Below, one piece after another: positions 21,001-24,000 of a stretch of 64,000 nt of DNA (positions within the stretch are counted from its first letter, which is position 1; every line of letters begins with the position of its first letter). Position numbers: made by a program. Location: assembly GCF_017348835.2 (NCBI RefSeq), contig NZ_CP071375.1; one strand, given 5' to 3'. The stretch comes from Escherichia coli (GTDB lineage: Bacteria > Pseudomonadota > Gammaproteobacteria > Enterobacterales > Enterobacteriaceae).

Positions 21001-24000
21001 CCGATACACAGGGGATCCGCCGTGAAAAACGGCAGGGGGATATTGCCCGTCTCTGTCGTCGTCCCAATGCACAGCAGAATCGTATCCAGTTTTTTGAACT
21101 GTGGCTGAACGCCAAACTGCGTCACGGCAATACGGTGGTGCTGAAAATCCGTAACTCCCGGGGGCAGATCAAAGAACTGCGTATTCTGGACTGGAGCCGG
21201 GTTGAACCTCTGGTGGCGGATGACGGCGAGGTGTTCTATCGCATTACACCGGACCGGAACTGCGGGATCACGGAGGCGGTGACGGTGCCTGCCAGGGAAG
21301 TGATCCACGACCGGTTTAACTGTTTTTTTCATCCGCTTGTGGGGCTGCCGCCGGTGTATGCTGCCGGGCTGGCGGCCACGCAGGGGCATCATATTCAGGC
21401 AAATTCAACGTCTTTTTTCAGAAATGGCGGCAGGCCGTCCGGGGTGATTGAGATCCCCGGCAGTATAACGGAAGAAAATGCGAAAAAACTGAAGAGCAAC
21501 TGGGACAGCGGGTATACCGGCGAAAATGCGGGGAAAACGGCCATTTTGAGCAACGGGGCAAAATACAACCCCACGACGTTTTCACCGGTGGATGCGCAGA
21601 CGGTGGAACAACTGAAGATGACCGCTGAAATTGTCTGTTCGGTGTTCCGTGTCCCGGCCTACAAGATTGGCGTTGGCCAGCCGCCTTCCAGTGACAACGT
21701 GGAGGCGCTGGAGCAGCAGTATTATTCCCAGTGTCTGCAGACGCTGATTGAGTCCATTGAGCTGTTACTGGATGAGGCGCTGGAAACAGGGGAAAACGAG
21801 AGCACGGAGTTTGACGTCACCACGCTGCTGAGAATGGACAGCGAACGTCGCATGAAAACGCTGGGTGAATCGGTGAAAAATACGCTTCTCACGCCCAATG
21901 AGGCCCGTAAACGTGAGAACCTGCCGCCCCTTGCCGGCGGTGATGCACTGTATCTTCAGCAGCAGAACTACAGTCTGGAGGCGCTGTCCCGTCGTGATGC
22001 CCGTGAGGATCCGTTCGCGTCTTCCGGGAAAACGTCGTCAGGCACACGCCAGGAGGGCGCGTCTGACGGTAATAAGGCCATAAGCGAAACAGAGCGTGAT
22101 GCGGTGAAGGCGATGTTCAGGGGGATACTGCGAAAATGACAGAGCGTGAACTGTCCATTATCCGTGCGCTGGGTGAAGAATTCTCCACGGTGCTGGCGGA
22201 TTTACAGCGCACATTTGAGGGGAAGATGGCCTCGCAGGCACAAGCGTTTGAAGAGAAACTGACTTCCCTGTCGGCGGTATTACAGAAGCATGTGACGGTG
22301 GATGAGGTGCGTCCGGTTCTGCAGGCGATGGTGGATGACGCTGTGGGGGCCATTCCGGTACCGCGTGATGGTCGTGATTATGATCCGGATGTACTGCAGC
22401 AGGCGGTGAATGATGCGGTTGCGAATATTCCGGTACCGGCGGACGGCAAAAGTATTACCCCCGATGATGTGCGTCCGATGCTTGAACAGATGGTGAAGGA
22501 GGCGGTAAGCCATATTCCTGTTCCGCGTGATGGTCGTGATTACGATCCGGAAGTACTGAAGCAGGCGGTGAATGATGCGGTTGCGAATATTCCGGTACCG
22601 GCGGACGGCAAAAGTATTACCCCCGATGATGTGCGTCCGATGCTTGAGCAGATGGTGAAAGAGGCGGTAAGCCATATTCCTGTTCCGCGTGATGGTCGTG
22701 ATTACGATCCGGAAGTACTGCAGAAGGCGGTGAATGATGCGGTCGCGAATATTCCGGTACCGGCGGACGGCAAAAGTATTACCCCCGATGATGTGCGTCC
22801 GATGCTTGAGCAGATGGTGAAAGAGGCGGTAAGCCATATTCCTGTTCCGCGTGATGGTCGTGATTACGATCCGGAAGTACTGCAGAAGGCGGTGAATGAT
22901 GCGGTCGCGAATATTCCGGTACCGGCGGACGGCAAAAGTATTACCCCCGATGATGTGCGTCCGATGCTTGAACAGATGGTGAAAGAGGCGGTAAGCCATA
23001 TTCCTGTTCCGCGTGATGGTCGTGACTATGATCCCGATGTTCTGCAGAAGGCTGTTCTGGATGCGGTGAGAGCCCTGCCGGCTCCGCAGGACGGGCGTGA
23101 TGCCACGGCACTGGAAATAATCCCCGCCATTGACGATCAAAAATCCTTTCCCCGGGGCACGTATGCCACACACCAGGGCGGACTCTGGCGGGCGTATGAA
23201 AAAACGCACGGGATGCGGGGATGGGAATGCCTGGTTGACGGGGTGGCCGATATTGACGTCAGCATGACCGGCGAACGGTCGTTCACTGTGGTGGTCCGGC
23301 AGAGCAGTGGCCAGCGTACGGAAAAAACATTTTCCCTGCCGGTGATGCTCTACCGCGGTGTGTTCAGAGCCGGTGAAACCTACCACCCCGGTGATACGGT
23401 GACGTGGGGGGGCTCGCTGTGGCACTGCAACAGTATGACCGGTGATAAACCCGGAGAAGCTCATTCATCAGGCTGGACCCTGGCTGCCAAACGGGGACGG
23501 GATGCAGGAGGCGGAAAATGACGGCATTACTGACACTGGAAGAGATCAAGGCACATCTGCGTGTCGACCATGACGCGGATGATGACATGCTGATGGACAA
23601 GGTTCGTCAGGCTACCGCCGTGCTGCTGGCCTACATTCAGGGCAGCCGGGATAAGGTGATTCGTGAGGACGGTGAACTGATCCCGGGCGAGGCATTAACC
23701 CGGATGAAGGGGGCTGCCATGCGACTGACCGGGATGCTGTACCGGAATCCGGATCTTGCGGAGCGGGAAGAACTGATTCAGGGGGAGCTGCCGTTTTCTG
23801 TTTCCGTGCTGATTTACGATTTGCGTTGTCCGACGGTGTTATGAGGAGGGGGAATGGCAATATCTGCAGGTCGTCTGACACAGATGATAAGTGTTCTGAA
23901 CCCGGTGTTAACCCGTAATGCTGCCGGAGAAATGACGGAAGAATGGGTGTCATGCGGGAAAATTCATGCGGATATCCGTGGCAGGAGCAGCCGGGAGCGG

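Follow-up and report, generated by a model that had tools for sequence, protein, structure and literature searches.

The window analysed here, a stretch of 64,000 nucleotides of Escherichia coli DNA, carries a lambdoid prophage. In its head module, a gene with an internal array of tandem repeats, in the following referred to as X, is located between the gene of the portal protein and that of a gp6-like head-tail adaptor, Ad1. This position between portal and head-tail connector genes had been proposed in the first-pass annotation and is borne out by the Phage_portal domain (Pfam) encoded upstream and the gp6-like Ad1 encoded downstream. The features of the locus are as follows.

20775..22139, + strand: portal gene, 454 aa (Pfam Phage_portal, E 6.6e-81, aa 54-382; PHROG 2271 positions 1-451)
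22120..22124, + strand: poly-G tract, G5 in the window (alignment of split and fused loci)
22136..23521, + strand: repeat gene X, 461 aa plus stop codon (ORF; arrangement and length as in BP-4795 ORF59)
22142..22285, + strand: long N-terminal alpha-helix, aa 3-50, acidic, putative anchor or oligomerisation helix (AlphaFold pLDDT 81-91; pI 4.6)
22292..22351, + strand: upstream degenerate half-unit VTVDEVRPVLQAMVDDAVGA, aa 53-72 (reading of the sequence; compare DDVRPMLEQMVKEAVSH)
22352-22513, 22514-22675, 22676-22837 and 22838-22999, + strand: four full repeat units of 54 aa each (Tandem Repeats Finder, comparison of units)
23000..23074, + strand: terminal half-unit IPVPRDGRDYDPDVLQKAVLDAVRA (comparison of units)
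23075..23518, + strand: C-terminal all-beta domain, aa 314-461, which defines the family (phmmer; AlphaFold pLDDT 92.7; pN/pS 0.18-0.19)
23342..23491, + strand: CBM5/12-like sub-domain, ~aa 403-452, GDTVTWGGSLWHC, with W429 near-invariant and W447 invariant
23518..23844, + strand: gp6-like head-tail adaptor Ad1 (Pfam Phage_connect_1, PHROG 40)

The stop codon TGA of the portal gene (22137-22139) overlaps the ATG of X, and the ATG of Ad1 overlaps the stop codon of X (GAAAATGAC) in the same junction motif. The sequence AGGGGG, located 11 nt upstream of the ATG of X, resembles a Shine-Dalgarno (SD) site. Full gene context was available for seven loci (the window, L007, L124, and L126-L129), all of which contain an HK97-like head module in the order TerS, TerL, protease/MCP fusion, small ORF, portal, X, Ad1; the capsid protein of this module already possesses a protease and a linker of ~170 aa. 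The synteny of portal, X and Ad1, with overlaps of 4-8 nt, extends over E. coli, Salmonella FSL SP-016 and five metagenomic lineages, and a stop/start overlap with a portal gene directly upstream of X is present in every context examined. In the prophage region of strain PE164 that matches the window, a host-specificity protein J of the lambda J type and tail-fibre genes are annotated downstream.

Tandem Repeats Finder places the array at 22352-23052, with a period of 162 bp, 4.3 copies, 97% matches, 0% indels, and a score of 1283. A sub-period of 75 bp (59% matches) within the array is due to the presence of two half-units in each 162-bp unit. Every full unit encodes IPVPRDGRDYDP[DE]VL[QK][QK]AVNDAVAN-IPVPADGKSITPDDVRPMLEQMVKEAVSH and is composed of two loop-plus-helix half-units, namely, an IPVPxDGxxxxP loop followed by a helix of either 13 or 17 residues; the array constitutes the stalk of the protein. 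Near-perfect 162-bp repeats, in four full copies plus partial ones inside a 461-aa gene (ORF at 22136-23521), had been recognized in the first-pass annotation, and both this description and that of the 54-aa unit as being built from two IPVPxDG half-repeats are confirmed, the latter by the sub-period and the comparison of units. The wider borders given there, 22292 and 23095, are correct as degenerate copies, the former being the start of the upstream half-unit and the latter belonging to the LPAPQDG motif at the start of the C-terminal domain. Judged by its sequence, the half-unit VTVDEVRPVLQAMVDDAVGA at 22292..22351 would be the ancestral edge of the array. Pairwise, the full units are 1-8 nt apart; the difference of 1-4 nt initially ascribed to all copies holds for copies 2-4 among themselves but not for copy 1, which is 7-8 nt away from the others.

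Since 162 equals 54 x 3, the array is in frame within the 461-aa ORF. With units whose length is a multiple of three, which are near-identical (97%) and whose copy number is polymorphic among close relatives, it is a coding VNTR. Chance origin of the array is impossible in view of its length and identity (score 1283), and the copy number in the window is not an assembly artefact, because the same 1386-nt gene is present in the complete genome of PE164 (100% identical) and as ORF59 of BP-4795.

Among relatives, protein lengths of 245, 299, 353, 407, 461, 515 and 569 aa are found, which lie on a 54-aa lattice and correspond to 0.3 to 6.3 units; the gene spans 1386, 1224 or 1062 nt in finished genomes. 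Variation between strains, as had been anticipated from the likeness of the copies, is thus evident among E. coli relatives, and invariance is contradicted by finished genomes, too. The divergence between units is 5.2% within one gene versus 8.6% between alleles, which fits the recent expansion or concerted evolution proposed earlier. Unit number would be altered via unequal recombination or replication slippage among the near-identical 162-bp units, with every gain or loss staying in frame, and the likeness of the units would be maintained by gene conversion. Stalk length can vary freely across the family, with 0.3-6.3 units in E. coli and, elsewhere, stalks made of different repeats or of collagen G-X-Y triplets. 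The array represents a natural length polymorphism that could be used as a prophage typing marker. Short-read assemblies are broken by it, and the best-scoring database entries are nearly all "partial" proteins at contig ends.

X is a three-part protein: an N-terminal helix of ~50 aa is followed by the stalk, whose loop-plus-helix half-units have 27 aa each, and by a conserved beta domain of ~145 aa with a CBM5/12-like end. An N-terminal helical segment is found across the family; in the AlphaFold model of X, this part is a single helix, in which neither a beta-tulip nor any other known capsid-binding base domain is present. The stalk is modelled, in the AlphaFold monomer and at a low pLDDT of 35-60, as alternating helices of 13 and 17 residues with loops of 12 residues between them; it is strongly acidic, with a net charge of about -18. 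When the helix and repeat part was compared with PDB sequences, weak matches to designed helical-repeat proteins were obtained (E 0.009). Sequence matches of X to decoration proteins in the PDB were absent, as were a G-X-Y run and the Pfam Collagen domain in the X of the window; the NCBIfam search of X gave no meaningful match. For the Phage_Mu_F domain (PF04233), X has no match at E<=0.1, the position after the portal gene being the only shared feature.

Conservation in X is highest in the C-terminal domain (pN/pS 0.18-0.19), which has a mean column identity of 52% across 47 diverse members, and lowest at the N-terminus (pN/pS 0.37-0.43). The likeness of the C-terminus to carbohydrate-binding modules, which had been suspected from an aromatic motif, is supported at the level of fold, namely, by matches of the AlphaFold model to CBM5/12 structures; it falls short at the level of the Pfam profile, where X scores 20.3 bits (E 5.8e-4) and, thus, below the gathering cut-off of 26.2. 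The homologue P0248, with 28.6 bits, passes that cut-off. In predicted structure and fold matches, X shows the three-stranded beta fold with exposed conserved aromatic residues that is characteristic of CBM5/12. The module forms part of a larger beta domain without a PDB counterpart (best global TM 0.26), and the closest viral structural neighbours of X are tail fibres and fibre proteins with collagen repeats or a CBM.

A phmmer search with the C-terminal domain against 1.84 billion representatives yielded 5546 matches at E<=1e-3 and 352 at E<=1e-30. Many family members have a collagen-like stalk, as exemplified by P0248 (Pfam Collagen, E 3e-21) and by P0239 and P0281, which are encoded in the syntenic loci L007 and L128. 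Since G-X-Y stalks are found in many members and none in the X of the window, stalk types are interchangeable within the family. When 50,697 phage genomes were searched by tblastn with three diverse members, the family was almost confined to Stx/lambdoid phages of E. coli and to Salmonella FSL SP-016; no well-studied model phage carrying it was among them. In the full-text literature, no description was found of the 162-bp repeat, of the X family or its location in the virion, nor any virion proteomics or structure for a family member. In a study of phi330 (Pankowvirus), mass spectrometry was performed on purified virions, with maps given only for podophages; the phi330 record itself was left out of the comparison because of its many split genes, which are probably sequencing errors.

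In E. coli, the length of the G tract decides whether X is encoded separately. With G6 instead of G5, portal and X are joined in one ORF of ~860 aa. Among 118 junction loci (112 IMG/VR stretches plus annotated loci), 75 are split and 43, about a third, are fused, and the allele tracks the flank haplotype in 58 out of 60 haplotypes, two being mixed. A hypervariable phase switch is, therefore, rejected as the main behaviour of the tract. Phage 2851 and vB_EcoS-783R2, both with finished genomes, carry the fused form, and fused 861-aa proteins are the standard entries in RefSeq. Fused alleles retain the SD site and ATG of X intact, so that free X may still be made, and purifying selection (pN/pS) is as strong in fused as in split alleles. 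Outside E. coli, fusion is rare (one out of ~148 representatives); an independent case is P0260, with 1237 aa and a stalk of ~700 aa. The split form, with an X start codon overlapping the portal stop, is the norm of the family in Salmonella, Klebsiella, E. albertii and five metagenomic lineages. Programmed ribosomal frameshifting was considered, too. As a family-wide mechanism it is rejected, since the junctions of distant members are ordinary ATGA, TTGA or GTGA overlaps without a slippery motif; in E. coli, where the portal/X junction reads AGGGGG-N8-A-AAA-UGA-C, it is left as a speculative, species-specific possibility.

The G6 fusion also explains how the gene came to be mislabelled as either "portal protein" or "frameshifted pseudogene", the latter by PGAP. 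The profile of PHROG 2271 ("portal", 859 aa) represents the fusion, with positions 1-451 covering the portal and 526-859 X. X is not a portal protein, because the 461-aa ORF is without a match to PF04860 and the domain lies in its entirety in the upstream ORF. According to the PGAP interpretation, the true gene would be a portal gene of ~860-915 aa, of which a 1-nt deletion in the G tract has left a 461-aa dead remnant. This would agree with the flag "frameshifted; internal stop" on the identical PE164 locus, with the label "portal protein, pseudogene" on the split form in some phage records, and with the standing of fused proteins in RefSeq. It is, however, most improbable, given that the split form, in which X has its own start, is the family norm, is found on diverse haplotypes in E. 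coli, keeps a complete Phage_portal domain in the portal protein, is under purifying selection, and occurs in exactly this arrangement in BP-4795, which was isolated as a phage. X would stand alone in the window because the tract at 22120-22124 is G5, in what would be the ancestral, family-typical arrangement and not a pseudogene. Correction of the annotation affects 1246 of 5426 complete E. coli genomes (~23%). More generally, a family without assigned function is systematically mislabelled that has thousands of members and a fixed place in a common HK97-like head module, including that of long-tailed Stx1, Stx2a and Stx2c phages of EHEC.

Several phage proteins of known function resemble X in part. 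Gp8.5 of phi29 is an elongated capsid appendage whose trimeric shaft is a supercoil of repeating helix-turn-helix elements, while gp12 of SPP1 is a trimeric, collagen-like capsid binder; head fibre and decoration protein, respectively, both are considered non-essential aids in adhesion (PMC7602432). The stalk of X is likewise predicted to consist of repeating short helices and loops, and X is probably dispensable; in contrast to gp8.5, to which it has no sequence similarity, X possesses a long N-terminal helix only and no beta-tulip, ends in a CBM5/12-like domain, and is probably present in few copies per virion. Many X-family members share a G-X-Y collagen stalk with gp12 and other collagen-like phage fibres, whereas in the window the stalk is made of helix-loop repeats devoid of a G-X-Y run, and X is encoded between portal and adaptor. 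Gp12, for comparison, has 64 aa, is encoded beside the capsid gene, and binds to the hexamer centres. T4 fibritin (wac) is a segmented helical fibre with loops between the segments, an N-terminal attachment end and a C-terminal folding nucleus; its gene adjoins neck protein genes, and it occurs in low copy number at the portal vertex. X has no sequence similarity to fibritin, whose foldon of ~30 aa differs from the 145-aa beta/CBM domain of X. From the chitin-binding CBM5/12 modules of Serratia ChiB and the Streptomyces ChiC ChBD, X is set apart by its sub-threshold Pfam score and the enclosing beta domain. The portal barrel of P22 is a C-terminal helical extension of the portal, and the genes of SPP1 gp7/Mu F proteins directly follow that of the portal, with which they are fused in some cases. 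These parallel the G6 fusion and the portal-X synteny, albeit without homology; X has fibre-like hallmarks, and its fusion is an allele and not fixed. The tandem BACON repeats of crAssphage, in a protein of the structural module, vary in unit number between lineages (PMC6949934); there, the repeat is the carbohydrate-binding domain, while the repeat of X acts as a spacer, next to one conserved binding-like domain.

A glycan-binding head fibre or decoration protein had been put forward in the first-pass annotation as a plausible role. The preferred reading, for which the chances are in our view about even, is that X is a low-copy, probably trimeric fibre on the virion surface at or near the portal vertex. 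Low copy number would follow from X being translationally coupled to the adaptor and to the portal with its 12 copies, the trimeric state from the collagen stalks of relatives; the acidic stalk favours an exposed, extended element. X would be displayed as a neck or head fibre with its N-terminal helix as attachment end, the number of repeats would determine its reach, and folding would start from the CBM-like C-terminal domain, which would also bind a conserved ligand of the glycan type. As a lambda J-type protein and tail fibres are encoded downstream in the matching PE164 region, X is probably an accessory adhesin and not the receptor binder. For a host-specific receptor binder, a C-terminal domain that is the most conserved part would be unusual. 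This same polarity, with a conserved distal domain and the least conserved N-terminus, is the reverse of that of typical receptor-binding fibres and speaks against a fibre. So does the fusion, stable in lineages including that of the finished phage 2851 and under the same purifying selection: the C-terminus of the portal faces the capsid interior in portal structures, and fused X would, thus, be inside. Furthermore, the low pLDDT of the stalk and its weak match to designed helical repeats make a monomeric solenoid, instead of a trimeric coiled coil, possible.

Somewhat unlikely, by comparison, is an internal stalk anchored to the portal, in which the N-terminal helix docks on the portal crown, or is fused to it through G6, and X forms a length-variable axial extension inside the capsid, functionally comparable to the P22 barrel or to portal-bound internal head proteins of the SPP1 gp7/Mu F type, whose genes fill the niche of X in other phages. 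Such a role would account for the invariable position of X directly 3' of the portal gene and its translational coupling, for an in-frame fusion that is common and lineage-stable in E. coli (finished genomes of 2851 and vB_EcoS-783R2), arose independently in P0260 and is selected as strongly as the split form, and for the conservation of the far end, as expected for a conserved binding partner. The structural neighbours, however, are tail fibres and fibre-like proteins, and we know of no collagen-like triple helices or CBM5/12 modules in phages other than on external fibres; a charge of about -18 on each of 12 chains fits poorly beside packed DNA, the ~700-aa stalk of P0260 is hard to fit in a capsid, a Mu F domain is not detected, fusion is rare outside E. 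coli, and, with SD and ATG kept, it is no proof of where functional X acts. A more specific version, in which the stalk on the crown is tunable in length and G5 or G6 sets the covalent share of the 12 portal subunits, is distinctly unlikely. X may then be a modular, detachable counterpart of the P22 barrel; ribosomal slippage could add to the effect, by -1 at A-AAA-UGA-C behind AGGGGG for G5 and by +1 on AGG-GGG-G for G6; and repeat number would tune an internal structure governing genome spooling or ejection, not an external adhesin. Quite improbable is a factor acting in assembly only, scaffold-like or as a chaperone with the portal in procapsid assembly or head completion, and absent from mature virions. 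Scaffold genes adjoin the portal gene in many head modules, X is translationally coupled to the portal, and its N-terminal two-thirds are acidic, helical and elongated; but the protease and ~170-aa linker of the capsid protein can serve as scaffold, known scaffolds have neither collagen stalks nor a strongly conserved domain of the beta/CBM-like type, and free variation of stalk length argues against a role in setting dimensions.

As an exposed fibre with a CBM, X would be a candidate for attaching the phage to chitinous glycans or to those of mucus or the cell envelope, and its reach could evolve in a simple way through the number of repeats; if internal, it would represent a new kind of modular portal extension. 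In either case, the natural split/fused polymorphism offers a ready-made test of the cargo tolerated by the portal C-terminus. In line with the fibre reading, the tail tube protein of the same phage carries an Ig-like domain, which is another accessory adhesion module.

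In the window, an in-frame VNTR encodes a spacer of dispensable length that connects the helical N-terminus of X, the 461-aa product of the repeat gene, with a conserved C-terminal domain resembling a carbohydrate-binding module (CBM), and the gene for X is in tight linkage with those for portal and adaptor. The window is a lambdoid prophage of E. coli whose repeat gene is 100% identical to that of PE164, a complete E. coli genome with a matching prophage, and whose first 25 kb are 99.9% identical. Of 5426 complete E. coli genomes, 1246 contain a relative of the gene; so do 92 phage records, the majority of them from Stx1a-, Stx2a- and Stx2c-converting siphophages. 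The position between portal and head-tail connector genes proposed in the first-pass annotation is confirmed by the gene order:

16901-18562, TerL
18626-20563, prohead protease/major capsid fusion
20775-22139, + strand, portal, carrying the whole Phage_portal domain
22136-23521, + strand, repeat gene X, directly after the portal
23518-23844, + strand, Ad1 adaptor, directly after X

Ad1 is followed by head closure, HK97 gp10-like, tail completion, tail tube, tail assembly chaperone and tape measure genes.

Tandem Repeats Finder returned a single array at 22352-23052 (162-bp period; 4.3 copies with 97% matches and free of indels; score 1283), with a weaker 75-bp sub-period corresponding to two related half-units; the array is in frame within the 461-aa ORF (22136-23521, +). 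Cutting into units gave the following elements:

22292-22351, + strand, degenerate half-unit upstream of the array
22352-22999, + strand, four full repeat units
23000-23074, + strand, terminal half-unit, directly after the fourth full unit
23075-23095, + strand, LPAPQDG motif, start of the C-terminal domain of X

Both analyses agree with the near-perfect 162-bp repeat of four full copies plus partials described before, whose slightly wider borders are due to inclusion of the degenerate upstream half-unit, the terminal half-unit and the LPAPQDG motif. The stated difference of 1-4 nt between copies applies to copies 2-4, but not to copy 1, which differs from the others by 7-8 nt; unit by unit, pairwise differences among the four full units are 1-8 nt.

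Complete X genes in related loci, many of them in draft assemblies, which are able to collapse arrays, have lengths on a 54-aa lattice (245 aa, n=2; 299 aa, n=3; 353 aa, n=16; 407 aa, n=33; 461 aa, n=10; 515 aa, n=1; 569 aa, n=1), with few off-lattice lengths (379, 405 and 325 aa) and a few truncated alleles. Finished sequences (complete genomes and Sanger-era phage genomes) contain spans of 1386, 1224 and 1062 nt, and 245-aa proteins, equivalent to 0.3 copies, are present on multi-megabase contigs. Lattice and finished spans together bear out the copy-number variation between strains that had been anticipated. Units diverge by 5.2% within one gene versus 8.6% between alleles (flanks, 8.1%), which supports the earlier suggestion of recent expansion or concerted evolution and reads as the signature of concerted evolution or of recent within-lineage duplication and loss. 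Copy number would change via unequal recombination or slippage between 162-bp units. The close homologues among the database entries (P0001-P0120) are almost all "partial", from 1.6-8-kb contigs; almost all best matches stop at contig ends because the 162-bp array breaks short-read assemblies, so that draft-genome copy numbers are unreliable.

In the full-length monomer model, a long helix (aa 3-50, pLDDT 81-91) is followed by the stalk and then by a confident beta domain. The strongly acidic stalk (net charge ~-18, pI 4.5) is modelled with low confidence as alternating 13- and 17-residue helices with 12-residue IPVPxDGxxxxP loops between them; low confidence would be expected if the stalk folds only as an oligomer. 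From weak matches to designed helical-repeat proteins, it could conceivably be a helical-repeat solenoid. The C-terminal domain (aa 314-461) gave a confident all-beta model (pLDDT 92.7) from a 47-sequence alignment. Its proposed likeness to a CBM holds for the last ~50 residues, which match chitin-binding CBM5/12 modules (profile versus PDB, E 0.003-0.01); for the whole domain, no global match was found among solved structures (Foldseek best E 1.1e-3, TM 0.26). Further structure matches are tail fibres of Agrobacterium phage 7-7-1, Milano and Pa193, and in the viral structure library the neighbours are fibre proteins that have collagen repeats or bear a CBM.

At the homologous region of many genomes, RefSeq gives one 861-aa "phage portal protein" (e.g., WP_015994249.1 of O157:H7 and WP_000267294.1 of ST131), and the PE164 copy, identical to that of the window, is marked as a frameshifted pseudogene. 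Split alleles (portal and X as two ORFs) and fused alleles (one ~860-aa ORF) differ at the junction only in a poly-G tract, the fused sequence being TTCAGGGGGGAT (G6), that of the window TTCAGGGGGAT (G5, 22120-22124), and that of other split alleles TTGAGGGGGAT. In the G5 allele, the portal ends in ...FRGILRK*, its TGA overlapping the ATG of X (ATGA, 22136-22139). Among 118 junction loci, drawn from an IMG/VR junction scan and annotated loci, 75 are split and 43 fused. Of finished phage genomes, BP-4795 (ORF59, 1386 nt, same as the window gene) and Salmonella phage FSL SP-016 are split; phage 2851 and vB_EcoS-783R2 are fused. In 58 of the 60 haplotypes the allele goes with the flanks, so that a rapid G-tract switch is rejected as main behaviour in favour of a stable lineage polymorphism. 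The C-terminal domain is under equal purifying selection in fused and split alleles (pN/pS 0.18 and 0.19, respectively) and the N-terminal 70 codons are under weaker constraint (0.37-0.43), values whose use as a guide to the site of action of X would be limited by prophage recombination and possible internal initiation. Both architectures thus preserve X; the Shine-Dalgarno (SD) element and ATG of X are intact in fused alleles.

The AGGGGG tract (22120-22124) lies 11 nt before the ATG of X, placed like an SD element, and 8 nt before the A-AAA-UGA-C of the junction (22131-22141), an arrangement recalling the dnaX and prfB frameshift sites. This E. coli junction, AGGGGG-N8-A-AAA-UGA-C, would permit slippage; programmed frameshifting as a family feature was rejected upon comparison of junctions across the family. 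An identical nonamer, GAAAATGAC, at the portal/X (22131-22141) and X/Ad1 (23513-23523) stop-start overlaps suggests a translationally coupled portal-X-adaptor triad. The last helix-like segment of the portal (SETERDAVKAMF) is similar to the first residues of X (MTERELSIIRAL; 22085-22160), which may mean that a short segment was duplicated or that the two share a motif for interaction. In phage vB_EcoS_phi330 (L131, PV189401.1), the X, HK97 gp10-like and tail tube genes each appear as two CDSs, probably sequencing errors and not biology, because this genome was hand-assembled from Sanger reads.

A domain search of both ORFs found no Phage_portal domain in X, the complete domain residing in the upstream ORF. 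PHROG "portal" profile 2271 (859 positions) is a fusion profile, and PHROG 1289, which likewise goes by the name "portal protein", represents X as a family of stand-alone proteins. With the domain wholly upstream and profile 2271 representing the fusion, identification of X as a portal protein is rejected, and its "portal" label is a transitive annotation error. X fragments of Klebsiella, Enterobacter and Salmonella (P0189-P0226) bear the PGAP name "phage gp6-like head-tail connector protein, partial", a second mislabel, probably taken over from fusions in which X reads through into Ad1 at the downstream ATGA overlap. X sequences are plentiful in databases, under wrong labels, and a literature search for the repeat, family or role of X found no published description.

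A phmmer search with the C-terminal 150 aa of X against 1.84 billion cluster representatives matched 5546 proteins at E<=1e-3, of which 352 reached E<=1e-30. The best 150 of the 5546 matches are nearly all stand-alone, of 200-550 aa, and share an N-terminal helical segment, a middle of very variable length and a terminal conserved C-terminal domain. The middle consists of PxPxDG-plus-helix repeats, as in the window, of LPxPEPLPDI-plus-helix repeats or, in many members, of collagen G-X-Y repeats (P0248: Pfam Collagen E 3e-21). Among these 150 representatives, the only portal fusion outside E. coli is P0260 (1237 aa, ~26 repeats). All retrieved contexts, which come from E. coli, Salmonella and five metagenomic lineages and include members with collagen stalks, have the same head module, with X always directly between portal and Ad1, 1-8-nt stop/start overlaps on both sides and SD-like elements; the ancestral norm is therefore the split form, as in the window.

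We infer, with about even confidence, that X is a fibre on the virion exterior, attached to the head or sited at or close to the portal vertex. This is favoured because collagen stalks, CBM5/12, acidic extended spacers and copy-number plasticity mark exposed phage fibres, and because the structural neighbours of X are fibres. X would be trimeric, judging from the collagen stalks of its homologues, and low-copy, judging from the coupling of its translation to that of portal and adaptor, which have 12 copies. It is similar in principle, though not homologous, to phi29 gp8.5, SPP1 gp12 and T4 fibritin; among phage fibrous accessory proteins, the freely exchangeable type and length of its spacer and the natural split/fused polymorphism with the portal are unusual. 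The main rival, an internal extension of the portal crown, is rather unlikely, yet it is suggested by a portal C-terminal fusion that is recurrent, stable and kept by selection, the portal C-terminus facing the capsid interior in known portals, and by the unusual pattern of conservation, which is strongest at the far end of X. If X were such an internal tunable extension, the importance of the finding would be substantially higher. Less likely than both external fibre and internal extension are an assembly-only role, which is improbable, and a pseudogene in the window, which is very improbable.

Further observations concern the prophage. A 73-aa ORF (20608-20829) without Pfam match occupies the capsid/portal interval, its last 55 nt lying within the portal gene; equivalently placed small ORFs (70-94 aa) are found in the metagenomic loci L126, L127 and L129 and in FSL SP-016, and no such ORF was called in L007 or L128. 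At its C-terminus, the major tail tube protein (25055-25771) has an Ig-like domain (Ig_2, I-set; aa ~150-233), a putative second accessory module for adhesion on this virion. The tape measure gene (26508-29750, 1080 aa) is intact in the window and broken by an IS3-family element in the otherwise near-identical PE164 prophage (L130); the window is therefore a different copy, possibly still functional. The prophage also carries two tRNA genes, located downstream of the antiterminator: the first (8752-8827) is tRNA-Met (CAU) by ARAGORN and tRNA-Ile by PGAP in PE164, the latter call implying a lysidine-modified CAU, and the second (8928-9004) is tRNA-Arg (UCU).
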